The notes beneath the pieces are model-generated. The model was given only the letters and a program-made list of their open reading frames with translations. It was not told the origin of the DNA and did no database searches. DNA of 64,000 bases from Nanobdellati archaeon. GTDB taxonomy: Archaea; EX4484-52; GLR71. The DNA lies in assembly GCA_019429125.1 (NCBI GenBank), contig JAHYJO010000002.1, positions 2,695 through 66,694 of the forward strand. The letters are read 5' to 3'. Of this stretch, positions 10,785 to 57,801 are shown piece after piece. Position 1 is the stretch's first letter; every line of letters starts with the position of its first letter. A program made the position numbers and the translations under genes.

Positions 10785-11744
10785 CTATATTAATGTTGTT
10801 GCAAGTAAATTAAATATGTAGCCTGTAAGGATTATTGATATAGTCACGATTGCAAAGAATACTGCAATAAGTGGTAGTTTCATCGCGCGCCTTAATATTA
10901 TTGCTTCAGGGATGCTTAAGGCGGCAGTTCCCATCATGAATGCTAGTGCTGTGCCTAGCGGGAATCCTTTTTCAAAGAGGACTAATGCGATTGGTACGAC
11001 GGCTGCGCAGTTTGCATATAATGGTACACCTATTAATGTTGCAAGAGGTACTGTGAATATGCCACCTTTCTCTATTAAGCCTATAATTGCTTCTTGAGGT
11101 ATGTAGCCATGGAGGAGTGCGCCTATCCCTATACCTACAAGGACCCATATCCAGATGCTTTTTGTGATTGCAGTTGCTTCAGTTAATCCGGTTTTTATTC
11201 TTTCATTTTGTGTGTGGTATATCTTCTCTGAATTTTTGATATCTGTGTCTATCATATCTTGTACTATGTGTTTTTCTAGATTTAGTTTTCCTATTACTAT
11301 GCCTGAGAATACGCCTATCAATATCCCGCTCATTATGTATAGGGCTGTTATCTTCCAGCCGAAGAAGCCGAGCATTATGATTGCGACGTATTCGTTCACT
11401 AATGGGGATGTTACAAGAAATGAGAAACTTATACCTATTGGGATTTTTGCTTTCATAAATGATAAGAATACAGGTATTGATGAACATGAACAAAATGGCG
11501 TGATTGCACCCATTACTGCAGCAGTTAGGTTTCCTATACCTTGTCTTTTTCCTGAAAGCATCTGTTTTATCTTCTGCTCGGATATGTATGTCCTTAAGTA
11601 TCCTACAATTGCAATCATCACGAAAAGAAGGAATAATATCTTTATTGAGTCATATATGAAAAATTCTAAAGCTAATGCAAGTTTTGTGCCTTCTTCAACT
11701 TTTAAGAGGGATAGGATTATCCAACTTGCAAATTCTTCTAGCAT
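10785..11744 (-). CDS. ArsP-like permease (COG0701/DUF318 family)
   Basis: Polytopic membrane protein carrying the hallmark TPFCSCSSIP motif of ArsP-type permeases. Confidence 0.7.
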   Translation of the reverse strand: MLEEFASWIILSLLKVEEGTKLALALEFFIYDSIKILFLLFVMIAIVGYLRTYISEQKIKQMLSGKRQGIGNLTAAVMGAITPFCSCSSIPVFLSFMKAKIPIGISFSFLVTSPLVNEYVAIIMLGFFGWKITALYIMSGILIGVFSGIVIGKLNLEKHIVQDMIDTDIKNSEKIYHTQNERIKTGLTEATAITKSIWIWVLVGIGIGALLHGYIPQEAIIGLIEKGGIFTVPLATLIGVPLYANCAAVVPIALVLFEKGFPLGTALAFMMGTAALSIPEAIILRRAMKLPLIAVFFAIVTISIILTGYIFNLLATTLI

Positions 11745-11894: not shown

Positions 11895-12210
11895 TTGTAT
11901 CACATCTTTTATTTTTGCGTATTAAGTATTTATTGTTATTGGTGGGGGTGGCACTATATATAGGTGTATGGTTTTGATTGGTATTATTTAGTTTTATTCT
12001 GATTATAGGAGTATTATATGCAATCTATGATTTATTATGTTTCAGATAATATCTATGTTTATTAGGATTTTTGATAATCTATAATTTTTTATGCAATTTT
12101 TAGGATATAATGATTTTCTGTGAATTTTTGTAATTATTAAAGTAACTAAAGTAAATATTGTCTATATATTTTGTCTATATATATTTTGTATATATACATT
12201 TCATACTTTT

Positions 12211-12374
12211 GGTACAGTTCATTTTTTGAGTGATTTCAAACAGAATGTAGTTAATTAAATACCTTTATTTCTTTTGTAATTCGACGTGAAATGTGTATAT
12301 TAAATGGATCTCTGCAGGAGTTTATAAACAATATTTAAAAAATATTCAAAATCACTAACTTTTTGGACAGTACC
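12211..12374 (+). mobile_element. MITE-like element, copy A (~164 bp, imperfect terminal inverted repeats)
   Basis: Near-identical to 50651-50818 and, in inverted orientation, to 55860-56033. Ends are GGTACAGTTC...GGACAGTACC. It is flanked by a direct CATACTTTT on both sides. Confidence 0.7.
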
Positions 12375-12503
12375 ATACTTTTTAAGTAGTATAAGCTATA
12401 ATGAGTAATAATTGATTATTTTGTAATGGTAATTAGGTCTGTTTTTGTTTGTTTGTATTGATTAATTTTGGACAAGTTTTATTGATTTTTGGTGTTCTTA
12501 TAC

Positions 12504-35525: not shown

Positions 35526-35598
35526 TTTATTTTCTTTTAGTCTTATCGACAGGTATTTAAATAGGTATAATTATAATATTTATTAAACTGTGATTTTT

Positions 35599-36549
35599 AT
35601 GTGGCTTCAGATTAAAATGTATATGGTTATGGCTGCGCTTTTTGCGGTGGTCTATTCGCTTGTGTCAGTCGCAGGTATGTATCTTGGTATGGGTACTTTT
35701 GTATTTTATGCATTACTTGCGACATTTTTTATGTTTGTGCAGTTCATGGTTGGGCCTAAAGTTGTTGAATGGTCTATGAAAATCAAGTATGTGACGCAGT
35801 CTGAGAATCCTAAACTGCACAGGATGGTTGATGAACTTGCAAGGCAGGCAAATATTCCTAAACCACGAATAGGTGTTTCTGATAACAGTTTGCCTAATGC
35901 GTTTGCTTTCGGTCGGTGGAAATCTGATAGTCGTGTCTGTGTTACAAAAGGTATTCTTAATCTTTTAGATGATGATGAACTTCGTGCTGTGTTAGGTCAT
36001 GAGATTTCACATATTAAAAACCGTGATGTCTTAGTCATTACTCTAATAAGTGTCATACCTATGATTGCTTGGCATATTGCATGGAGTTTTATGTTTTCAG
36101 GCGGGCGTAATCGTGAAGGTGGAAACACTATTGCTTTAGGTATTGCTGCTTTTGGTATATATATATTTACTAATCTTTTAGTGCTTTATGCGTCGCGTGT
36201 GCGTGAATATTATGCTGACAGGGGTAGCGTTGCGCTAGGGTCAAGACCTAACCATCTGGCTTCTGCATTGTATAAGCTTGTTTATGGGAGTGCCAAGATT
36301 TCAAAAGATGATCTCAAAAAAGTTGAAGGTATGAAAGCGTTCTTTGCAAGTGATCCATCTCGGGCATTCTCTGATATGCGCGAGCTTAAGGAATTGGACA
36401 AGGATATGAGTGGTGATATTGATGCTAGTGAATTGCGAGCAATTCGTGGGCGCAAGATGGCTGTATCTCGTTCAAATAAGATGATGGAGATGTTAAGTAC
36501 TCATCCTAATATGCTTAAGAGGATTCATGCGCTGTCTGAGATGGAATGA
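35599..36549 (+). CDS. htpX: M48-family zinc metalloprotease HtpX
   Basis: N-terminal TM helices plus the HEISHIKNRD (HExxH) motif. Confidence 0.8.
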   Translation: MWLQIKMYMVMAALFAVVYSLVSVAGMYLGMGTFVFYALLATFFMFVQFMVGPKVVEWSMKIKYVTQSENPKLHRMVDELARQANIPKPRIGVSDNSLPNAFAFGRWKSDSRVCVTKGILNLLDDDELRAVLGHEISHIKNRDVLVITLISVIPMIAWHIAWSFMFSGGRNREGGNTIALGIAAFGIYIFTNLLVLYASRVREYYADRGSVALGSRPNHLASALYKLVYGSAKISKDDLKKVEGMKAFFASDPSRAFSDMRELKELDKDMSGDIDASELRAIRGRKMAVSRSNKMMEMLSTHPNMLKRIHALSEME

Positions 36550-36571
36550 GTGTGGGTTTTTTGTTTTTTTA

Positions 36572-36691
36572 ATTTATATATTTAGATTTATATTTAGATT
36601 TATATTTAGATTTATATTTAGATTTATATTTAGATTTATATTTAGATTTATATTTAGATTTATATTTAGATTTATATTTAGATTTATATTT
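36572..36691. repeat. tandem array of ~10 copies of a 12-nt unit (TTTAGATTTATA)
   Basis: The perfect head-to-tail repeats are directly visible, in the htpX downstream intergenic region. Confidence 0.9.
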
Positions 36692-36782
36692 GGGTAATAA
36701 TTTGTATGTGTCTTGAGAGTTTGTTATTGCTGTGTATGCCTAAGTCTATGAGATATAGTAGGAAAATTAAATATTAAATTCT

Positions 36783-38886: not shown

Positions 38887-40357
<1,471 letters not shown>

Positions 40358-40456
40358 TGCCAAAAAGTTTCTGAACTTGTGATAGCTACTTCAACGTAGC
40401 ATTACGTAAACAGATTACGAAGCCGACAAAGCACCAATTTTTCAATTTGTTTAAAT

Positions 40457-40563
40457 GGGCTCTTAGTTCAGTTGGAAGAACGCTGCCTTTGCAAGGCAGA
40501 GGCCGCGCGTTCAATTTGCGTTTACCTTTAGGGTTTTAGCAAGAACATATCGCGCAGAGTCCA
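40457..40563 (+). tRNA. tRNA-Ala (anticodon TGC) in the 16S-23S spacer, with a ~34-nt T-loop intron
   Basis: Acceptor GGGCTCT with the G3:U70 pair; anticodon loop TTTGCAA; T-stem GCGCG with TTCAA at 40505-40514. The 3' T-stem CGCGC and acceptor AGAGTCC plus A follow at 40551-40563. Confidence 0.75.
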
Positions 40564-40749
40564 TTTTTATATTTACCAAAAATTACGAAGATTCACCTAA
40601 AATATCATACATCATAAAATCATATTTAAAGCATACAGCTTTATTTGTGATCGAAAGTCATTTTTCGATTGCATCTGATCAATATATTTTTCATATTGAG
40701 ATGAGGTATCATAGGTCTGTATTTGAGCATTTTGCACAAAATGTGAAAG

Positions 40750-43640
40750 CTATACAAGGGATGGCTTGGCTCAACAGCTGATGAAGGACGTGACAAGCTG
40801 CGATAAGCCCGGAGTAGGCGCATGTAGCCTTTGATTCCGGGATTTCTGAATAAGCAACTAGCTCTTCGGAGCATTCTCGCAAGAGAAAGGGAACGCGGAG
40901 AATTGAATCATCTTAGTACCCGTAGGAAAAGAAAGTAATAACGATGCCGTGAGTAAAGTCGATCGAAAGCGGTAGAGATCAAACTGAATCCTTTATAGAA
41001 ATATGATGGAAATGTGGTGTTCGTCTAAAGTATATGCTATCTTCCCGTTTTTAGCTGAAGTCTTCTGGAACGTTGCACTGTAAAGGGTGATAGTCCCGTA
41101 AGCGAAATTAACGAAAGATAGTTCTTTAGACAGAGTATCCTAGGTTGGAATTCCTGGGAGAATATGGGAGTCAATAGCTCCTAAATCTAAATACTCGTTG
41201 AGACCGATAGTGAACCAGTACTGTGAAGGAAAGGTGAAAAGTATTCCTAGCGGAAGGTTAAAAGAACCTGAAATTGTATAGCTATAGTCAGCCACGGCCC
41301 GAAAGCACCTAACGGTGCGGGGTTGTGGTGTGCGTTTCGAAAAAAGAGGCAAGGAGTGCATTTCAGTGGCGAGATTAAGGGCTTAAGGTCCGAAGTCAAA
41401 GGGAAACCAATATCTCGCAGCTTGCAAGGAGAATGGTGTTAATAGCGCCATTAGTCACTGGGATGCTACCTGAAGCCGGATGATCTTGCCCTGGGTAGGA
41501 TGAAATGTGGTGAAAACTGCATGGAGGTCCGCAACCGTTGTTATCTAGTACTCGGGTGACCTGGGGTAAGGGGTGAAAAGCCAATCGAATCCGGCGATAG
41601 CAGGTTCCTTCTGAAATAGGCAGTAGCCTAGCCTGGAACGAGGTTAATATTGGGGTAGAGATACTGATTTAGTATTTAGGCTGGGAAACCGGTCGGTACT
41701 TTGCCAAACTCCGAATCCAATATTGCTGTAGACTTCCGGAGTTAGGGCATCGGGGTAAGCTTGATGTCCTAGAGAGAAACAACTCAGGCTAGAGTTAAGG
41801 CCCCAAAGTGATTGCTAAGTGTAATAATAAGATGGTCAAAAACCACAGACAGTAGGGAGGTTAGCTTAGAAGCAGCTATCCTTTAAAGAAAGCGTAATAG
41901 CTCACCTACCAAGGTTTTTGGCGTCGTAAATGGACGGGGCTAAAGCAATCCGCCGATACTCTAGAGTGCCTATATTTTAGGTAATCTTGTATGAAGGCGT
42001 TATGCTAGGATAGAAGCAGGGTTGTAAAATCCTGTGGACCTTGCATAAACGAGAATCTTGCCGGTAGTAGCAGAAAGTCGGGTGTGAATCCCGATCGCCG
42101 TAGGGGCTAGGTTTTCCCAGCACTGTTCGTCAACTGGGAGTTAGTCGATCCTAACCGTATTCGTAATTCGAGATTCGGGAAAGGGAAATAGGTTAATATT
42201 CCTATACTGCAAAAGTACACGTGGCGACACAAGTTTATTTTCTGACATTTTGGGATAGGTTGACACGAGCTCTGCTCGTGCTAAGTGTTGAAACCTATGG
42301 AGAGTCGTAATGACGAGAAGTAGGTGAAAGCACAAATGGCTTTCCTTATGGAGAGTTCAGCTGGATCCTGGAATCCATGAAAAGGGAAATAATCGGATCT
42401 TTTGTAATCGTACCGAGAACCATTACTGGTGCCCCTGGATGAAAAGTCTAAGGCGTTTCAGGATAATCAAGTTAAAGGAATTCAGCAAATTAGCCCTGTA
42501 TCTTTGGTATAAGGGGTGTCTGTGACCATGCCCTAGGCATGACTCGCAGACTTCAATAACAAGGGGGGCTCGACTGTTTAACAAAAACGTAGCTGGCTGC
42601 TAGTCCGAAAGGATGCGTACAGCCAGTGACTCCTGCCCAGTGCGAGTAGGTGAAACTCCGGTTCAACGGATATAAGCCCTCGTAAACGGCGGTCGTAACT
42701 ATGACGATCTTAAGGTAGCGTAATCCCTTGTCGATTAATTGTCGACCTGCATCAATGGAGTAACGAAGTCCCCACTGTCTCTAACTTGACCCTGGCGAAC
42801 CCGCAATTTTGGTGCAAATGCCAAAGACTCCAAGCGGGAAGCGAAGACCCCGTGGAGCTTTACTGCAACCTGTTGTTGAGATACGGTTTAAGTTGTGAAG
42901 TGTAGGTAGTAGACATCGAAGTTATCACGCAAGTGATAATGGAGTCACCAATGGGACACTACCCTTCTTAAACTGTATTTCTAACCCTATAAGGGGACAT
43001 CTACAGGCGGGCAGTTTGACTGGGGCGGTACACTCCTAAAAAAATATCAGGAGTGCCCAATGACTTACTCAGGCCGGACAGAAATCGGCTGTAGAGCGTA
43101 AGGGTATAAGTAAGTCTGATAGGATTTCGAATAGCGAGAAATCCTGCCGTGAAAGCGTGGCCTAACGAACCCATGTAGCTTTTTATTGAGGCTCATGGAT
43201 GACAGAAAAGCTACCCCGGGGATAACTGAGTCGTCTCAAGCGAGAGCTCATATCGACCTTGAGGCTTGCTACTTCGCTGTCGGCCCTTCTCATCCTGGTT
43301 GTGCATCAGCAGCCAAGGGTGGGGGTGTTCACCCATTAAAGAGGATCGCGAGCTGGGTTCAGAACGGCGCGAGCCAGTTTGGTTGCTATCTGCTTGGAGT
43401 GTTAGTGTCTGAGAGGAAGGTTCCAACAGTACGAAAGGAACGTGGAGCCGTGGCCTCTGGTTTATCAGTTGTCCAAAAGGGCATGCTGAGTGGCTACGCC
43501 ATAGGAGATAAAAGCTGATAGCGTCTAAGCTTGAAGTTCCCCTTAAAAATAGACACTGGATCCTTATAGAAGATGAGGTTGATAGAACAGGGATGTAAGT
43601 GCGGTAACGTATTAAGTCCACTGTCACTAATAATCCAACA
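40750..43640 (+). rRNA. rrl: 23S ribosomal RNA (archaeal); ends approximate
   Basis: 5' region GGGATGGCTTGGCTCAACAGCTGATGAAGGACGTGACAAGCTGCGATAAGCC plus conserved 23S blocks throughout. No 5S follows. Confidence 0.9.
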
Positions 43641-43817
43641 AAGGCATTTTGTGCAAGCTTTGAAAATACAGACCTATGAATTTTACCTTATCCTTTTTTG
43701 GGTGAGGTTTTTTTTGGAGTGTATATAGCACTATAGTGGTATAGTTTTAGGTGTTTATAGTTTTATATAATATTGCTGTTGTTTTTTAGAAAATGATTAT
43801 ATTTTTTGTTTTTAATT

Positions 43818-49506: not shown

Positions 49507-50613
49507 TTATTGTTTCTTGCTTGTTAATATAGTTTTATCTTTTTCAGTATCATGTATGAGTAGATATATTATTGACGCTGGTATTGCCATCAAGATTGGT
49601 CCGAGTATAAATCCTACTGGTCCAAAGACTACTGCACCACCTATAAAACTGATTAGTACAATTAAGATGTTCATCTTCTTTTCTTTTGCTACTATGAGTG
49701 GCTTTGTTATCCAGTCTGGTATGCTGCTTACTATAATTAGGTTGAGTATGAAGAATGTTATTGCGGTCTCTGCATTGCCACTGAAGAACATTATCATGCT
49801 TATAGGTGTGTATATTAACCATGCACCTATTATTGGTATTAATGTTAAGAGTGCTGTTGCAGTTGCAAGGAGTATTGGGTATGGTATGGAATATAAGATA
49901 AATATTAGGTAAGCTAGTGCTCCTGTGAGTACTGCCGTTACAAAAATGCCCATAAATATGTTGTTTAAAGATATATCCATTTCTTTTATGAATTTTGTCA
50001 TGAATTCTTTGTGAGTTTCAGGTACTGTGTTTGTTATCAGTTTCGTTATTGATTTCCTGTCACGGACTCCGTAAAAAGCTATCATGAATGCAATTGTCAG
50101 TTGCAGGATTATGTAGCCTAAGCTGAACATAAATCCTATTATGGTGTTTATTGTGTAACTTATCTGTGAGGAATATGTTTTTAAGTTTTGGATATTGTTA
50201 AGGTCTGGTTTTTCAAAAAGTAGCATGATGGTGTTATAATTTATTGCTTTTAATATTTCGGATTCTATGTCTGTGGTATTTATGTTATATTGGGTGGATA
50301 TTATGTTTGTAGCTGTCGGATTGTTTAGTATTGCTGTTGTTTCAGTTATTGCGACTGATAGGAAATATGTGCTGAATATTACAATTGAAGTTATGACTAT
50401 TATTATTGTAATTGCTATGGGTATTGTCTTGTTTTTTATATATTTCTCAAGTGTGGCATATATTGGTCGTGTGACATATATTATGAACAGACCTATACAT
50501 AGTGCTGGTATGAAATATGTAAGTATTTTCATGACAAAGAAGGATATGAAAAGTATTATGGCTGATATTATGAAGGTATATATGTTATTATTGTTAAATT
50601 TTTTTTGATTCAT
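49507..50613 (-). CDS. AI-2E family (PerM/UPF0118-like) transporter
   Basis: 368 aa with 8 TM segments; N-terminal region LFIIYVTRPIYATLEKYIKNKTIPIAI resembles the family signature. Confidence 0.5.
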   Translation of the reverse strand: MNQKKFNNNNIYTFIISAIILFISFFVMKILTYFIPALCIGLFIIYVTRPIYATLEKYIKNKTIPIAITIIIVITSIVIFSTYFLSVAITETTAILNNPTATNIISTQYNINTTDIESEILKAINYNTIMLLFEKPDLNNIQNLKTYSSQISYTINTIIGFMFSLGYIILQLTIAFMIAFYGVRDRKSITKLITNTVPETHKEFMTKFIKEMDISLNNIFMGIFVTAVLTGALAYLIFILYSIPYPILLATATALLTLIPIIGAWLIYTPISMIMFFSGNAETAITFFILNLIIVSSIPDWITKPLIVAKEKKMNILIVLISFIGGAVVFGPVGFILGPILMAIPASIIYLLIHDTEKDKTILTSKKQ

Positions 50614-50650
50614 ATATGTTAATTATATCTTGTGTCTTATATATTTTTGT

Positions 50651-50818
50651 GGCACAGTTCATTTTTTGAGTGATTTCAAACAAAATGTAGTTAATTAAAT
50701 ACCTTCATTTCTTTTGTAATTCGACGTGAGATGTGTATGTTAAATGGATCTCTGCAAAAGTTTATAAACAAACAATATTTAAAAAATATTCAAAATCACT
50801 CGATTTTTGAACAGTGCC
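50651..50818 (+). mobile_element. MITE-like element, copy B
   Basis: About 90% identical to copy A, with the same imperfect terminal inverted repeats (GGCACAGTTCATTTTTTGAGTGATTT ... AAATCACTCGATTTTTGAACAGTGCC). Confidence 0.7.
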
Positions 50819-50893
50819 TCTTAGGTATTATCTATATATATCATGTCTTGTCAAATAATTATATATAAATTAGTAATATTTATGGTGTTGTAA

Positions 50894-51586
50894 ATGGTAT
50901 TTAAAATAAATCGCATAACTACGGGTGTACCTGGAGTAGACTTGCTTATAGATGGGGGTGTTCCTGAAGGAAGTGTGGTACTTCTTTGCGGTGGTCCCGG
51001 TTGTGGCAAGACTACATTTTCATGTCAGTTCCTTATGAGCGGTCTTAAAAAAAATGAAAACGGTCTTTATATTACTCTTGAAGAAAGTCCTGAAGATATA
51101 AAAAAGGATGCGCTTTTGCATGGATGGGATTTTAGTAAGCATGAATCTGATGGTTCATTGCGCATTATGTATTATGATCCATTTGAGCTTAAAGAAATAA
51201 TAACACGATTGAAAGATCTCATAATTGTCAATAAGATAACAAGACTTGTTATTGATTCAGTAACACTTTTTGGTATGTACATTAAAGAAGAATATAATGT
51301 GCGTAAAGAATTGTATCATCTCATTTCAGCTTTTAAAGAGACTGGTTGCACCGCTCTTCTTCTGTCTGAAATCAGTGCGGGAGAACCAAATAAATATAGC
51401 AGGTACGGTGTTGAAGAATTTGTGGCTGATGGTGTTATTGTTCTTCATTACATGGGTATTGGTGAAGGTGTCTTTAGAAATATTGAAATTCGTAAAATGC
51501 GTAGAACAAAACATAAAAACGGAATGTTCCCATTAGTTCTTGATGATGAGGGTATGCATATCGATTCTGAGATGGCTAATTTTTAA
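50894..51586 (+). CDS. KaiC/RecA-superfamily single-domain ATPase (FlaH/KaiC-like)
   Basis: GVPGVDLLIDGGVPEGSVVLLCGGPGCGKTTF Walker A and a KaiC-like fold signature. Confidence 0.75.
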   Translation: MVFKINRITTGVPGVDLLIDGGVPEGSVVLLCGGPGCGKTTFSCQFLMSGLKKNENGLYITLEESPEDIKKDALLHGWDFSKHESDGSLRIMYYDPFELKEIITRLKDLIIVNKITRLVIDSVTLFGMYIKEEYNVRKELYHLISAFKETGCTALLLSEISAGEPNKYSRYGVEEFVADGVIVLHYMGIGEGVFRNIEIRKMRRTKHKNGMFPLVLDDEGMHIDSEMANF

Positions 51587-51889
51587 TTTTATTATTGGTA
51601 TCTGTTAAATGTTGTCTGCTCGGGTAGATTTCAAAGACAATTTTGTGTAATGTGTCTTCAGATATCTCTGTTAAGTATGAAGATTTCCAATTTTCAGATT
51701 TGATTAGTACTTTTGTAGTTTCAAAAATTAAAATGTTCATAACTGTTGCATATTTCTAGATTAATTTTTATTATATTTCAGAAGTTAATTGTGTATTTTC
51801 ATCTATTTGGCTAGTGAGGTCAGGATATGCTTGATATATGCGTTTATTACTGTATATTCCGTTTTTTTGAGATTACGACATGATTGATC

Positions 51890-53431
51890 TTATCCTTTAT
51901 TTAAGCTATTTATATCTTTTCCGTTGAATATTATAGCATCTATTGTATTTGCAATGTCTGCAATCTTTATCCTTTTTTGTTCTTGTGTGTCTCTATCTCT
52001 TATCGTGACTGTATTATTTTCTTTTGTTTCAAAGTCTATAGTTATACAGAGTGGTGTGCCTTTTTCATCCATGCGAGCATATCTTCGGCCTATTGAACCG
52101 CTTGCATCATATACTGCTGTCAGTCCGTGATTTTCTATCAGGTTTTCTGTCAGTTCTTCTGCTATTTCAGCAAGACCTTCTTTTTTTACGAGCGGGAAAA
52201 TTGCAACATGTATGGGTGCTATATCTTTTGGTACTGTAAGTATTGTCCTTTCAGCATTTTTTTTGTAGTTTATGTCAAGGAGTGCAAAAACAGGTCTGTC
52301 TGTGCCGAATGCAATCTCTATTATGTGTGGTACTATCTTGTTGTTATTTTCATCTAGAGCTTCAAGTTTCTTGCCTGAGGCTTTTGAGTGCTGAGTGAGG
52401 TCGTAATCGGCTCTGTCGTGGATACCGCAACATTCAACCCATCCGAAACTGTTGGTCTTTATCTCAAGGTCCCAGGCGTCATCAGCGTAGAATGCGCGCT
52501 CGTCAAGCGTATGCTGGCGTAATCGTATGTTCTCTTTAGGTATGCCTATTTCAGTGAACAGTAGGTATGCAAGGTTTACGGCCCAGGCATATGCTTTATT
52601 TTTGAAATATTTATTTTTTATTGCATCTTTAACTTTTGTTTCTTTTTGTGTCTCTTCTTTTTCTTGCATCTGGTAGGGCCATAGTGGTAGTTTGTTGTCG
52701 CTTATCTTTTCATATCTGTTCCAGATATCTTTCTGTTCAGGAAATACAAATATCTGGCCTTCTGCCTGTGTGAACTCTCGCATGCGCATTACGTGCTGTC
52801 TGGGGGATATTTCGTTTCGGTATGCTTTACCTATCTGAAACACGCCAAATGGCAGTTTTTTTCTAAAATAATCAACATATCTTATAAATGGGAGGTATGT
52901 GGTCGTTGCTGTCTCTGGGCGATTGTAAGCTTCTATATCTGTACCTATTTTTGTCTTCATCATAAGATTATGTTTTGTTATCTCTTTGTTGAATTCAGAA
53001 CCGCAAGTGGGGCATTTGATTTTATTTTTTTCAATGAAATCAAGAAGTTGCGTCTCTGAGAATGCGTCGGCTACTACGTCGTGTTTTTCTTCTATGATTT
53101 TATCTGCTCTGAAATTAGAGTTGCACTTTGAGCATTTTATTAGTGGGTCTGTGAAATTGTCCAGGTGACCTGATGCCTGCCATACTTCTTTTTGCATGAC
53201 TGTTGGGCATTCAACTTCCCACATGTCATTTTTATGGAATGTGGTTCTTATTTTGTTCTCTACATTATTTTTTAATTTTTTGCCTAATGGCGCATAAGTA
53301 TAAAATCCGGCAAGTCCACCATAAAGTTCTGGTTCAGGACCCCATATGAAGCCTTTCTGCTGGATGAAAGATATCAATTGTTCCTGAAACTTTTTTCTTT
53401 CTTTTTGCATTTTTAAAACCTGTTGTATCAT
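51890..53431 (-). CDS. glyS: glycyl-tRNA synthetase (archaeal/eukaryotic alpha2 type)
   Basis: N-terminal FIWGPEPELYGGLAGFYTYAPLG, class II motif 2 FRNEISPRQHVMRMREFTQAE, and the anticodon-binding GSIGRRYARMDEKGTPLCITID. Confidence 0.8.
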   Translation of the reverse strand: MIQQVLKMQKERKKFQEQLISFIQQKGFIWGPEPELYGGLAGFYTYAPLGKKLKNNVENKIRTTFHKNDMWEVECPTVMQKEVWQASGHLDNFTDPLIKCSKCNSNFRADKIIEEKHDVVADAFSETQLLDFIEKNKIKCPTCGSEFNKEITKHNLMMKTKIGTDIEAYNRPETATTTYLPFIRYVDYFRKKLPFGVFQIGKAYRNEISPRQHVMRMREFTQAEGQIFVFPEQKDIWNRYEKISDNKLPLWPYQMQEKEETQKETKVKDAIKNKYFKNKAYAWAVNLAYLLFTEIGIPKENIRLRQHTLDERAFYADDAWDLEIKTNSFGWVECCGIHDRADYDLTQHSKASGKKLEALDENNNKIVPHIIEIAFGTDRPVFALLDINYKKNAERTILTVPKDIAPIHVAIFPLVKKEGLAEIAEELTENLIENHGLTAVYDASGSIGRRYARMDEKGTPLCITIDFETKENNTVTIRDRDTQEQKRIKIADIANTIDAIIFNGKDINSLNKG

Positions 53432-53761
53432 TTTTGGTGAACAGATTTATAAATTATATATATATAGATTTGTTTTTTTGGGTGAGATGTTTGTTTTTTA
53501 TTGATGCTGAGTGAATATTGTAGTGTGATTCAAACCGAAAAGCTTATAAACTTGGGAGTTTTAATTCTGGCTTTGTGAAATAATGCGGGTGTGAAAATAA
53601 TTTAACAGTATTGAACTATAAGGTATCGGTTTTAGTAAGGATCTCTTCATCTTTTAATTAATAGTTTTAGCTTTAGCTATTGTTTTATTTTTTGAAGAGT
53701 TTCTTTATCTATGTTGGATATAGCTTTAGCTATATTTTGGAGTAATTAATTGGTGATATGA

Positions 53762-54040
53762 ATGAAAAATAAAATGAAAAAGAGTCTTGAACAGATAAAT
53801 GACATTGCAGTTGATGCGATGGGACAAAACCAGTATGTTTTGGTATTAGGCAACATATGTCGTCTAATTGAAGGGAAAACAAAATCTGATGCATTGAGAA
53901 AGTATATATCTAATTTTGATTTCGGTTTTAATATAGGTAATGTTTTTGAAGGACGTATAGAAGCTCTTAATAAATTGAAGTCTTTTAAGATGCAAACTGC
54001 AGAGCTATCATCAAATTGCGTTGAGATACCATGTGAATAA
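53762..54040 (+). CDS. hypothetical small protein
   Basis: 92-aa ORF, no motif. Confidence 0.3.
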   Translation: MKNKMKKSLEQINDIAVDAMGQNQYVLVLGNICRLIEGKTKSDALRKYISNFDFGFNIGNVFEGRIEALNKLKSFKMQTAELSSNCVEIPCE

Positions 54041-54055
54041 ATTAATGGTGTTGAT

Positions 54056-54340
54056 ATGAAACAAAAAGGATTTATGATGTCTATAAATGTGGTTGTATCT
54101 CTTGTTGTTCTTCTTGTGCTTGTATCCATATCTATAATCATTATAGGTGAGGATGCGACTACATTTGGTTCCGAATCAGAATCAAAGATTGATTTGGGTT
54201 CATCTGCAACATTGTGTCAGGTTGGTTGTTTTAAATGCTGTAGGTATTCTGAATCGCAATCTGGTCTGTGTGGTACTCAAGAAGATATGGTATTTGGGAC
54301 TGGTGGGTGTGTATGTTTATGTGCTTCCGGTTCTTTTTGA
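54056..54340 (+). CDS. small Cys-rich secreted/membrane-anchored protein with a class-III (prepilin)-like N-terminus
   Basis: MKQKGF followed by a ~25-residue hydrophobic stretch, then 10 Cys in the last 45 residues (CQVGCFKCC...CGT...GGCVCLC). Confidence 0.4.
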   Translation: MKQKGFMMSINVVVSLVVLLVLVSISIIIIGEDATTFGSESESKIDLGSSATLCQVGCFKCCRYSESQSGLCGTQEDMVFGTGGCVCLCASGSF

Positions 54341-54424
54341 TTTTTTTGATTTTGTGGTATTTGCATTATAGATAAATATATATATTTTAAATTCGAATAG
54401 AATGTAAGTTGTTGTGGTTATATT

Positions 54425-54853
54425 ATGGTGAAAAAATCGTCAAGTGATTTAAAGAAAAAGATAGAAGATGTTAAATATGAGGCTTTAGGTAAGATTGATA
54501 CTATTAAAAAAGAGTCATCAGGTAAAAAAAATGATAAAAAATCTAATAAAAAGGGAAAGTTATCAGTATTGTTTCTTATTTTCTCATTTTTAGAAGATAT
54601 GATAAAAAAAAGTGGTGATATTCTTGTTGCTTTTGCTGAGCTTGGTGTTTTTAGTAAAAATACAATTGAAAATATCAAGCACAAAGTCATGAAGTCATTC
54701 GTATTTGTGGTTCTTTTGATATTGGGCGCTGTGTTTTTTATACGTGGTGTGATAATATATCTTGAGCATGTGTTCCCACAGCTTGCTAATGGTACTTCTT
54801 TTGTGTTCATAGGGCTTGTTATAATGAGTATTGCTTACCTATATAATAAGTGA
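54425..54853 (+). CDS. hypothetical membrane protein with Lys-rich N-terminus
   Basis: 142-aa ORF with two or three TM helices. Confidence 0.4.
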   Translation: MVKKSSSDLKKKIEDVKYEALGKIDTIKKESSGKKNDKKSNKKGKLSVLFLIFSFLEDMIKKSGDILVAFAELGVFSKNTIENIKHKVMKSFVFVVLLILGAVFFIRGVIIYLEHVFPQLANGTSFVFIGLVIMSIAYLYNK

Positions 54854-54873
54854 ATTTAATAAGTGAATTTTTG

Positions 54874-54925
54874 GCACAGTTCAAAAATCGAGAGATTTTA
54901 AATATTTTTTAATTTTTTTCATTTA
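54874..54925 (-). mobile_element. truncated/divergent MITE end (solo terminal repeat)
   Basis: GGCACAGTTCAAAAATCGAGAGATTTTAAATATTTTTTAA matches the first ~45 nt of the inverted MITE end, then diverges. Confidence 0.4.
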
Positions 54926-55402
54926 TTTTTCAATACTCAATTTGACAGTTTGTATGCTAAAATAAAAATATGTTATATAGTTTGATCTATATTTAAATTC
55001 AGATTTAATCTTTAATAAAAATTAAGAAAATTCACAAAAATTAGCCAAATGAATTTGACAGTTGGGTTAAAATTTAGAAAAATTATGAAAAAAAGAGACA
55101 TTTAGTCTTATTTTTATCCCAAAATTAGTATATTTTAGTAAAAAATCAAGAAATTGTATGATTTAATCAAGCAAAAATGCTCAATAATTGCCAACTGTCA
55201 AATAGGTTTTCAGAATGAAATAGTGCTAAACTGTTAAACTTAGACTATATTATAAATTAAATAAGATGCCTATTTTGAGATGGTTGTTTTTTATTAAATT
55301 TTGACATTGCAACTCTTTTTTTAGACACATCAAATGAAAAATAAATTTGATAAATAGAATGAGTGATTGTAAAAAATAAAAAAATAAAAGTTTTTGAGGC
55401 TT

Positions 55403-55792
55403 TTATTTCTTTTTTGAATCTTTTTTTATCTCAGCTTCAAGTTTTTGTATTTTTGCTTCAAGAACCTTAATCTCTTTTTTTGTTGCGAGGTCTGTCTTTT
55501 TGATGATGTCTGTGACTTGACTGTTAATTGTAGTTTCAAGGTCTTTTGTGCTTTTCTTTGATTTTTCGATAAGTTCTGCGACAAGCTTTTTGCCTTCGTC
55601 TTTGTTGAGGTCACCTTTTTTAATCAGGTCTTTGACAAGTGCTTCTGCCTTATCTTTTGTTATTGCTGCAACACCTATGCCAAAAAGGCCAACCTTTCTT
55701 GCAAGATTGTATATGTCTGTTTTAGTTTCTGGTTGTTTTGCAGTTTCCGCTTTTGTAGTCTTCTTTTTTGTAACCATATTAATTTCCTCCAT
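55403..55792 (-). CDS. phasin-like / coiled-coil protein (start uncertain; 55777 is an alternative)
   Basis: IYNLARKVGLFGIGVAAITKDKAEALVKDLIKKGDL resembles the phasin (PHA-granule-associated) family. The longer track ORF, extending to 55864, runs into MITE copy C. Confidence 0.4.
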   Translation of the reverse strand: MEEINMVTKKKTTKAETAKQPETKTDIYNLARKVGLFGIGVAAITKDKAEALVKDLIKKGDLNKDEGKKLVAELIEKSKKSTKDLETTINSQVTDIIKKTDLATKKEIKVLEAKIQKLEAEIKKDSKKK

Positions 55793-55859
55793 TAAAAGAG
55801 TATGTTTTGTTTTATGGTAATTATTTGTATCTATAAAGATAAATAGGTTTGGATAATTT

Positions 55860-56033
55860 GGCACTGTTCAAAAAGTGAGTGATTTTGAATATTTTTTAAA
55901 TATTGTTTGTTTATAAACTCCTGCAGAGATCCATTTAATATACACATTTCACGTCGAATTACAAAAGAAATAAAGGTATTTAATTTAATTTAACTACATT
56001 CTGTTTGAAATCACTCGAAAAATGAACAGTGCC
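55860..56033 (-). mobile_element. MITE-like element, copy C (inverted relative to copies A and B)
   Basis: Reverse-complement match to copies A and B, flanked by a direct GATAATTT on both sides. Confidence 0.7.
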
Positions 56034-56325
56034 GATAATTTTGGTTGTTTTTTTTGGTTTTTATTGTTATGTGCACACTAGGATATATTTATAAAGCTAT
56101 CTTTGTATATTATTCTCGTTATGTATAAGGTTAGAAGAACATTATAGTTGATTTCTTGCTTTTTGTTCTTTGTGATATAATATAGATTATAGTTTTGTAT
56201 CTATAGTATTGTGTATATATATCCAGAAAATAAAAAGCATATAGATGTTTTCATTAATATCCTTATGATTTGATTTAGAATTGTTTTCTGTTAAAGAAAT
56301 AAATATAAATACGAATGTGATAACA

Positions 56326-57801
56326 ATGAATGAATTTGAAAAATTAGGACTAGATGAAGCTATACTTAAAGTTATAGTTGTTGAAAAATTTGAGAAGCCA
56401 AGTGATATACAGGTAAAAGCAATACCACTTATTCTTGAAGGTAAAGATGTTATGGCTGTATCTGCTACAGGTTCAGGTAAAACGCTCGCTTTTGCGGCAG
56501 GTATTATACATGATGCTAAAAGAGGTGCAGGGATTCAGGCATTAATACTTACGCCTACAAGAGAACTTGCAGAACAGGTTTCGGACTCGTTTAAGACATT
56601 CTCACAGTTTAAGAAATTGAGAATATTGCCTGTTTATGGTGGTGTGTCTATAAGTGCTCAGATACAAGGACTTAAGCAAGCTGATGTTGTTATAGCTACA
56701 CCAGGAAGGGTTCTTGATCATATTCAGAGAAAGACTATTGATTTAAGTTTAGTAAGTACACTTGTTTTTGATGAAGCTGATAGGATGCTTGATATGGGTT
56801 TTATTGATGATGTTAAAAAGATTACAACTAAATGTCCAAAGAAAAGACAGACTTTACTTTTTTCTGCAACATTATCAAAGAAAGTATATAGTCTTGCAAA
56901 AGGATATATGAATAATCCTGAATCTGTTTCTGTTGAATCTCGTGTTGATCCTACTAAATTGAGTCAGTGTTTTTATGATGTTCAGGATAATCTTAAATTT
57001 TCACTTTTAGTACATTTATTGAAAACTGAGAAATCAGGACTTGTGATGGTATTTTGCAATACTCAGAGAAATACTGATTTTGTTGCAAAAAACATTAAGA
57101 TGCAAGGTCTCGATGCGTCTGCAATTCATGGTGGTCTTACACAAGATAAAAGGACCAGGATTATGAAAAATTTCAATTCTAGTGATGTCCATGTGTTAGT
57201 ATGTACAGATGTTGCTGCTCGTGGTCTTGATATAAAGGGCGTGTCTCATGTATATAATTATGATGTGCCTAATGAAAGCGATAATTATATACACAGGATA
57301 GGTCGTACTGCACGTGCTGGTAAAGAAGGTAAAGCAATAACTATACTTGCAAGCAGAGATTATGGAAATTTCAGGAAAGTTTTAAGTGATACTGGTGTAA
57401 AGGTTGTAAAAGAAGATGTACCTGCTGTTGAACGTGTCAAGTTAACTGTTCCTGTCAGTTCTGATAGTGGTTCAGGTCGTGGCGGTTTCGGTGGAAATCG
57501 TGGCAGTTCTGGATTCGGTGGTAGAGGCGGTTCAGGTTCCGGTGGTCGAAGCAGTTCTGGTTTCAGTGGTCGAAGCGGTTCTGGATTCAGTGGTAGAGGC
57601 GGTTCAAGTTCCGGTGGTCGAAGCAGTTCTGGATTCAGTGGTAGAGGTGGTTCAGGTTCCGGTGGTCGAAGCAGTTCTGGATTCGGTGGTAGAGGCGGTT
57701 CAGGTTCTAGCAGTGGCGGATATGGGGCTAAAAAGACTGGTTTTGGTGGTAATAACAACCGTAAATCATCTGGCGCTGGTAAATCTTTTCAGAAAGATTA
57801 A
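56326..57801 (+). CDS. DEAD-box ATP-dependent RNA helicase with a C-terminal RGG/SG-rich low-complexity tail
   Basis: Q-motif, Walker A GSGKT, DEAD and SAT motifs, HRIGRTAR; then ~100 aa of repeating GGRSSSGFSGRGGSGS units. ATG 5 nt after GTGATA. Confidence 0.9.
   Translation: MNEFEKLGLDEAILKVIVVEKFEKPSDIQVKAIPLILEGKDVMAVSATGSGKTLAFAAGIIHDAKRGAGIQALILTPTRELAEQVSDSFKTFSQFKKLRILPVYGGVSISAQIQGLKQADVVIATPGRVLDHIQRKTIDLSLVSTLVFDEADRMLDMGFIDDVKKITTKCPKKRQTLLFSATLSKKVYSLAKGYMNNPESVSVESRVDPTKLSQCFYDVQDNLKFSLLVHLLKTEKSGLVMVFCNTQRNTDFVAKNIKMQGLDASAIHGGLTQDKRTRIMKNFNSSDVHVLVCTDVAARGLDIKGVSHVYNYDVPNESDNYIHRIGRTARAGKEGKAITILASRDYGNFRKVLSDTGVKVVKEDVPAVERVKLTVPVSSDSGSGRGGFGGNRGSSGFGGRGGSGSGGRSSSGFSGRSGSGFSGRGGSSSGGRSSSGFSGRGGSGSGGRSSSGFGGRGGSGSSSGGYGAKKTGFGGNNNRKSSGAGKSFQKD

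Follow-up and report, generated by a model that had tools for sequence, protein, structure and literature searches.

A MITE family in a DPANN archaeal contig and the insertion sequences that share its ends

Near-identical sequences of about 165 bp recur in the 64,000-nt stretch of archaeal DNA analysed here (the window, meaning this stretch at its full length), and they raise the questions of whether they are mobile elements that inserted at their present sites and, if so, which transposase moved them. A previous examination of the letters, without database searches (the sequence-only reading), had taken the repeats to be MITE-like. They are confirmed here as a genuine MITE family by their size, their ends, their 8-bp target-site duplications, the divergence between copies, the empty sites of relatives and the existence of insertion sequences (IS) with matching ends.

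The window, with a G+C content of about 35%, is archaeal in its 16S-tRNA-23S operon and in its RNase P RNA. Ten of its proteins are identical throughout to proteins of a MAG deposited as 'DPANN group archaeon', and their 90%-identity clusters include proteins from MAGs labelled Nanohaloarchaea and Aenigmarchaeota. The rRNA operon (38887-43679) comprises 16S, a tRNA gene (40457-40529; found by Rfam and missed by ARAGORN) and 23S, which is bracketed by a 35-nt inverted repeat (40709-40743 and 43645-43679) resembling a processing stem; no 5S gene was found anywhere in the window. GC skew is strongly positive in every 4-kb bin (0.14 to 0.31), and the plus strand carries most of the large ORFs. Repeats of other kinds were also noted. 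One is a 12-nt tandem repeat (TTTAGATTTATA, about 11 units) in the intergenic region 36540-36731, downstream of the ORF at 35590-36549; another is a 24-nt periodic repeat (57450-57719; about 8 units, 62-85% identical) in the 3' part of a DEAD-box helicase gene, where it probably encodes a repetitive C-terminal tail.

Anatomy, flanks and gene context of the copies

The three full copies (A, B and C; Table 1) were aligned together with their 20-nt flanks. Pairwise identities of 92.7% (A/B), 96.3% (A/C) and 94.0% (B/C), with small indels, bear out the near-identity first noticed at these three positions, and the GG and CC tips form a sharp limit of similarity, beyond which the flanks are unrelated. 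The terminal inverted repeats of about 26 nt, previously described as imperfect, are present and prove to be bipartite, each consisting of an 11-nt tip (GGCACWGTTCA) and an inner block (GAGTGATTT) separated by a spacer of 5-6 nt. The strand on which the spacer is T-rich does not change from one end of the MITE to the other; thus, by comparison with full-length IS, one end is IRL-like and the other IRR-like. Searched with a tolerance of up to 3 mismatches, the end pattern GGYACWGTTCAWWWWNNNAGTGATTT has 7 matches in the window versus 0.02 expected from shuffles. In copy A both tips are mutated (GGTAC for GGCAC; GTCCA), for which reason this copy may be immobile.

An nhmmer profile of the element found no copies in the window beyond the three full ones and a solo end. 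Three of these four hits fall within 5.4 kb, so that the earlier extrapolation from their density in the window to many copies genome-wide is unsafe.

The flanks of copies A and C carry perfect target-site duplications (Table 1), each with a chance of about 4e-5 per copy of arising as an 8/8 match, by our own estimate at this base composition. Their length, formerly given as 8-9 bp, is 8 bp, the ninth base counted for copy A (a C) being the last base of the element. The duplications do not extend to all copies: the flanks of copy B (ATTTTTGT versus TCTTAGGT) show none. Loss of a duplication at copy B by inversion with the solo-end copy was considered and rejected, as the flanks do not fit such an exchange.

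The copies are AT-rich and non-coding, and are absent among the window ORFs of at least 80 aa. All three full copies are intergenic, as originally noticed, and each is flanked by divergently transcribed genes: copy A by genes for an ArsP-type permease (10785-11744, minus strand) and ribosomal protein L3 (12668-13651, plus strand), copy B by genes for an AI-2E-type transporter (49507-50613, minus strand) and a KaiC-like ATPase (50894-51586, plus strand), and copy C by a phasin-like gene (minus strand, ATG near 55776) and a DEAD-box helicase gene (56281-57801, plus strand). The orientation of the MITE relative to the adjoining genes varies among copies. Confinement to gaps between divergent genes is probably due to a compact genome that tolerates insertions only there. 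The single-stranded fold of the MITE is more stable than those of shuffles (z = -4.1 and -3.6) and consists of the terminal repeats pairing with each other, the two sub-blocks pairing around a small T·T bubble. Rfam gave no match over 50500-56200, either at the gathering threshold or at E <= 1, and a scan for sigma-70 promoters and terminators gave the same result as for shuffles, the sigma-70 model being inapplicable to an archaeon.

The end fragment of 45 nt that had been placed at 54874-54925 is real, with somewhat different limits (Table 1): it begins one base earlier and is lengthened to 54925 only by the nhmmer profile. Its type is that of the right end of copies A and B. It lies within an AT-rich stretch specific to the window, in which a tandem copy of a host 13-mer (AATAAGTGAATTT) at the start precedes the solo end, and a third, diverged copy of the 13-mer (AATGAGTGATTGT) lies near the right border. 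No second end and no ORF above 30 aa was found in this stretch, which is possibly a decayed, longer non-autonomous element or the outcome of a two-step event. At 51597-51883, about 290 nt separate the convergent genes of the KaiC-like ATPase and glycyl-tRNA synthetase, which are 5 nt apart in the relatives; this segment lacks a terminal repeat and matches nothing else in the window or among the loci collected.

Table 1. Features of the window and of loci elsewhere (L numbers). The strand of a MITE copy runs from its IRL-like (A-run) end to its IRR-like (T-run) end; TSD, target-site duplication; relatives, syntenic contigs L045-L048.
Feature	Position	Strand	Length	Flanking repeat or remark
MITE copy A	12211..12374	-	164 bp	
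TSD of copy A, left	12203..12210		8 bp	ATACTTTT, perfect
TSD of copy A, right	12375..12382		8 bp	ATACTTTT, perfect
MITE copy B	50651..50818	-	168 bp	no TSD
MITE copy C	55860..56033	+	174 bp	inverted relative to A and B
TSD of copy C, left	55852..55859		8 bp	GATAATTT, perfect
TSD of copy C, right	56034..56041		8 bp	GATAATTT, perfect
Solo IRL-like end	54873..54917	+	45-53 nt	GGCACAGTTCAAAAATCGAGAGATTT..., homologous to the A-run end of the MITE
AT-rich window-specific stretch	54858..55402		~545 nt	~51 nt in relatives
Short element, L012			168 bp	ACAGAAAA, perfect; 71-73% identical to window copies; MAG shared with relative L048
Short element, L014			166 bp	GGTCGTTT, perfect
Short element, L010/L026			166 bp	CTTGATTC, perfect
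Short element, L025			171 bp	7/8
Mini-element, L016/L029	L016:1245-1299, L029:611-665		55 bp	TTTACTGC, perfect; hardly more than two ends back to back
Mini-element, L007/L022	L007:2661-2715, L022:11705-11759		55 bp	7/8; same mini type
Mini-elements, L005/L032	L005:4209-4263, L032:4576-4630		55 bp	flanks are inverted, not direct, repeats
IS in L037			1574 bp	CCCTGATT, perfect, 8 bp; perfect 24-nt inverted repeats GGCACAGTCCAAAAAGTGAGTGAT
IS in L049-L058			1568 bp	
IS in L060-L069			~1630 bp	

Empty sites in related contigs

Four related contigs (L045-L048) are syntenic with the window (46-60 kb) at about 82% nucleotide identity. Copy B is missing from all four, and copy C is missing from three of them (L045, L046 and L048). 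Homology to the relatives ends at 50650 and restarts at 50825 around copy B, and ends at 55854 and restarts at 56084 around copy C; these breaks coincide with the borders of the two copies. At the C site the relatives read ...AATAGGTTTG-GATTGTTT-TTTGGT..., with the target 8-mer present once, versus twice in the window. The breaks at the element borders, together with the single target at the C site of the relatives, indicate true insertions and exclude an assembly artefact, and the empty orthologous sites of B and C indicate that these insertions postdate the split from those relatives. The sequence-only reading had named an assembly duplication or inconsistent termini as the outcomes that would count against it; the copies have instead diverged from one another, with unrelated flanks, and B and C have empty sites.

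The B site is also informative about its missing duplication. Between the conserved flanks, the relatives have about 18 nt, and the window has 6 nt in addition to the element, some 10 nt of the ancestral site having been lost or altered there; thus, copy B lacks a duplication because a little target sequence was lost or changed in association with its insertion. The element inserted between two TATA-like, AT-rich boxes that are conserved in the relatives and that we interpret as putative promoters.

Elements with the same ends in other genomes

Scans with the end pattern yielded 12 loci from 185,579 species genomes and 21 loci from JGI metagenomes; viral contigs gave nothing either in pattern scans of their own or in a protein scan. 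With probable chance matches removed, the end-bearing loci belong to Woesearchaeota, Nanoarchaeota, 'Nanohaloarchaea' and Methanosarcinales MAGs, or to unbinned contigs. Short elements elsewhere (55-171 bp) have the same ends, different interiors and 8-bp flanking repeats that are perfect or match at 7/8 positions (Table 1), and all the MITEs examined have one IRL-like and one IRR-like end each. Comparison of the L012 element with the window copies indicates that the interior is the part of the MITE least conserved between species. The 55-bp mini-elements were found in Woesearchaeota and in metagenome contigs. Further contigs break off 38-141 nt inside an end, as is expected of multi-copy repeats that break assemblies.

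Among the candidates set aside, a single locus beside an IS5-like gene (L013, L015, L017, L020, L021, L024 and L030) was taken as a chance match, as were end-pattern matches inside coding sequence (L008, L018/L027 and L031). In two contigs (L006:1-989 and L023:1-1024), an IRL-like end precedes an ORF resembling an antitoxin and a gene for a PIN-domain toxin, and the contig stops before a second end. The MAG of L006 is labelled Candidatus Buchananbacteria (CPR); the remaining genes of this contig are of HEPN, nucleotidyltransferase and GNAT type, and none of its genes distinguishes Bacteria from Archaea.

Homologues were reached indirectly, through a decayed ORF beside an end in L001; the first of them were all of 164 aa or less (a word-indexed search that returned fragments only). 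In L033 and L035, the end is followed about 90 nt on by an ORF starting MTEI(H/Y)LNLNNF; L034 and L036 are decayed copies, and L035 has a recognisable left end. The search for a transposase with matching inverted repeats that the sequence-only reading had proposed was successful: complete IS of 1.57-1.63 kb, bounded by 26-nt ends of the MITE type and by 8-bp duplications, were found (L037, L049-L069) in organisms other than that of the window, their hosts being DPANN archaea and Methanothrix. The IS of L037 has one 432-codon frame, broken by a single in-frame TAA (896-898). Within L060-L069, five 8-mers (AGGAAAAC, GTAAAACC, GTAGTGGA, GCTTTTTA and TGAAAAAC) each occur once at a left flank and once at a right flank, which is independent evidence of the 8-bp duplication. 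The two flanks do not match in most IS contigs from metagenomes (L049-L059), a mismatch attributed to probable chimeric assembly of multi-copy repeats; the cross-matches within L060-L069 support this for L049-L059 too. In L060-L069 and L049-L058, contigs often combine the left flank of one copy with the right flank of a different one.

Most IS have ...CAAAAAGTGAGTGAT as the end upstream of the gene and ...(A/T)TT(T/C)(C/T)TGAGTGATTT as the downstream end; the end sequence varies, being GGCACAGAATAG in L060 versus GGCACAATTCAA in L049. An eIF-1A gene adjoins the IS in L049, indicating an archaeal host for at least this copy. The IS and the MITE have in common the 26-nt ends (tip plus GAGTGATTT), the pairing of an IRL-like with an IRR-like end, the 8-bp duplication, and AT-rich and DPANN hosts, whereas the IS are about ten times longer, encode a transposase of 431-432 aa and differ in subterminal sequence beyond about 27 nt. 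The MITE interior of about 115 nt matches none of the sampled IS, the likeness being confined to the 26-27-nt ends, and thus lends no support to an origin by simple internal deletion. The window had been described as free of a transposase, and tblastn with four members of the partner family agrees (best E = 0.59); nor was a transposase of this family found in the four related contigs.

The transposase has a zinc finger (CxC...CxxC) at its N terminus, and HQKCxxH lies in a helical insertion domain. Features invariant in an alignment of 29 members are CxC...CxxC, NYDEQHP (D153), TDCDRRYP (D210), HQKCLLHLNK and PATNNAIEN (E377), so that the conserved D, D and E on an RNase-H-like fold by which DDE enzymes are recognized are present as D153, D210 and E377. 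With the L037 protein as query, 852 clusters were found, mostly of intact 431-432-aa proteins and nearly all on contigs of 1.5-2 kb; the few labels among the homologues are 'transposase [Nanoarchaeota archaeon]', 'transposase [Patescibacteria group bacterium]' and 'ISNCY family transposase, partial' (NCBI). A profile of the family, searched against 1.84 billion representative proteins, recovered only 424 clusters (50% identity) at E <= 1e-3, indicating a compact family that is separate from the large known ones. The transposase genes are often broken, by a TAA (L037:896-898), a frameshift (L035:1158-1187) or, in Methanothrix, a GC-rich insert of about 110 nt (L043:~980-1100); as a result, gene callers list the C-terminal 100-160 aa or so as small 'hypothetical proteins' in their own right.

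The transposase family passes none of the Pfam or NCBIfam models. Weak matches to DDE_Tnp_IS66 were found in 19 of the 29 members (best E = 4.6e-5), below the Pfam cut-off of 23.1 bits; on the IS66 model NF033517, with a cut-off of 180, the core family scores 20-26 bits and remote relatives reach 50. Over these two models the scores run from 18 to 26 bits in the core family, and on the same IS66 model a true IS66 transposase encoded in L060 reaches 250 bits. Matches to the MULE model are sub-threshold (6 of 29 members). For ISL3 (NF033550 and Pfam domains) there is a fragment match at E = 0.019, with 14 bits versus a cut-off of 180, and the remote relatives reach 28 bits. The core family matches neither NF033587 nor the IS6-type Pfam domain, and neither the ISH6 model NF041731 nor the IS256 model NF033543; the transposase profile has no match among PDB sequences. 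The remote relatives, of 450-490 aa, show faint matches to IS66, IS256, ISL3 and IS6 alike. Our reading of these scores is that the transposase is a DDE enzyme in the broad neighbourhood of IS66, IS256 and ISL3 that lies outside each of them by curated criteria. A tblastn search of plasmids found only a 24%-identical 'hypothetical protein' of 473 aa on a plasmid of Methanosphaera sp. ISO3-F5 (L070, NZ_CP118754.2, 64063-65484), which has faint ISH6, ISL3 and IS66 matches and is probably an unannotated transposase.

We propose tentatively, with rather less than even confidence, that the 26-nt end defines an unclassified IS family centred on ultra-small DPANN archaea, also present in Methanothrix and possibly in CPR/Patescibacteria (according to MAG labels), and that this family has spawned non-autonomous derivatives from 55 bp to 164-174 bp.

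Origin of the copies and likeness to known systems

The copies are very probably a MITE whose partner is the 1.57-1.63-kb IS of DPANN archaea and Methanothrix, with the 431-432-aa transposase acting in trans. The transposase would bind the bipartite ends of the MITE, cut at the GG tips and integrate the element at staggered cuts 8 bp apart, with gap repair producing the 8-bp duplication; the copies that survive would be those that landed between the promoters of divergent genes.

An alternative that we consider unlikely is that the copies are a genuine MITE moved by some other transposase of the source genome, with ends that are alike by common descent or by convergence among related IS families. 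Such a history would suit a MITE interior that matches no sampled IS, a window in which no partner is seen, and IS ends that vary between L060 and L049; however, the MITE agrees in both end sub-blocks and the distance between them, in IRL/IRR asymmetry and in its 8-bp duplication with the IS, whose hosts include DPANN archaea (eIF-1A in L049; Nanoarchaeota labels).

It is distinctly improbable that selection maintains the copies for a function in the host, as a promoter, a regulatory cassette or a gene for a small RNA, although a function of this kind would be compatible with a transposon origin. All three copies do occupy divergent promoter regions, the ribosomal protein L3 gene starting 294 nt beyond one of them, and their fold exceeds shuffles in stability, but that fold is merely the pairing of terminal repeats and has no Rfam match even at the relaxed threshold. 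The orthologous intergenic regions of the relatives work without the element; moreover, its interior is the part least conserved between species (L012), and its orientation to the neighbouring genes is inconstant.

Parentage by IS6/IS26 was the first guess from the tips, and is contradicted by the sampled IS that carry these ends; we accordingly give very little credence to a MITE derived from an IS of this family and moved by an IS6-type transposase, through replicative cointegrates with 8-bp duplications. IS26 ends in GGCACTGTTGCAAA, there are two IS6-derived MITEs in ISfinder, and some remote relatives of the partner transposase score faintly on IS6 (25-29 bits versus a cut-off of 125). The published IS6-family end motif, a GG tip followed by cTGTt and caaa, fits the tips found here (GGCACTGTTCAAAAA), and IS6 elements also make 8-bp duplications (PMC7986276). 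This is resemblance only: the IS with these ends are 1.57-1.63 kb long rather than 0.7-0.9 kb, about twice the length, their 432-aa zinc-finger protein fails the IS6 models (NF033587 and the IS6-type Pfam domain), and tblastn with an IS26 transposase as query gave no match to the window or the loci. An assembly or duplication artefact, for which a metagenome-assembled source contig might give occasion, can be dismissed with near certainty, since the copies have diverged (at 4-7% of positions, besides indels), their flanks are unrelated, two have 8-bp duplications of their own, and related elements occur in independent assemblies.

Taken as a MITE with an identified partner family, with occupied and empty sites and with duplications, the repeats provide a clean case of recent transposition in a DPANN archaeon. 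The genomes of this group are tiny and known almost solely as MAGs, in which repeats usually drop out or are mis-assembled. With the end motif and the 432-aa transposase, a family missed by Pfam and NCBIfam models can be annotated, and contig breaks or chimeric joins in DPANN assemblies can be flagged. The two could also help to trace the exchange of mobile DNA among DPANN archaea, Methanothrix and, perhaps, bacteria of the CPR; should the bacterial labels be true, the family would have crossed between the two domains of episymbionts that share habitats.

The IS66 family makes 8-bp duplications and has GTAA tips. The partner IS resemble single-ORF, ISBst12-like IS66 elements in their 8-bp duplication, and IS66 gives the best of the weak model matches; they differ from IS66 in a transposase that scores below the cut-offs and in tips that read GGCAC. 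ISH6 is an archaeal Mutator-like family that makes 8-bp duplications at a AANATNTT target (PMC3942029). The partner IS are unlike the IS256/ISH6/Mutator-like group (p-MULT; PMC3942029) in that the core family matches neither the ISH6 nor the IS256 model, and the duplicated 8-mers found here do not fit the ISH6 target.

The window element is closest in kind to other prokaryotic MITEs (e.g., the SM elements of Sulfolobus and entries in ISfinder), with which it shares a length below 200 bp, the absence of coding capacity, terminal inverted repeats, a target-site duplication of fixed length, an intergenic position, ends in common with a full-length IS and reliance on a transposase supplied in trans. 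It differs from them in its end sequence, in its partner family and in an interior that is not traceable to the sampled partners, and is set apart also by its bipartite ends with a spacer of constant strand polarity. MITE-dense DPANN genomes have already been reported in a census (PMC11602168). Thus, the kind of element is an ordinary one, and knowledge of the workings of MITEs is unchanged; what is moderately new is the link between a series of MITEs of 55-174 bp and a widespread, uncurated IS family of DPANN archaea and Methanothrix.
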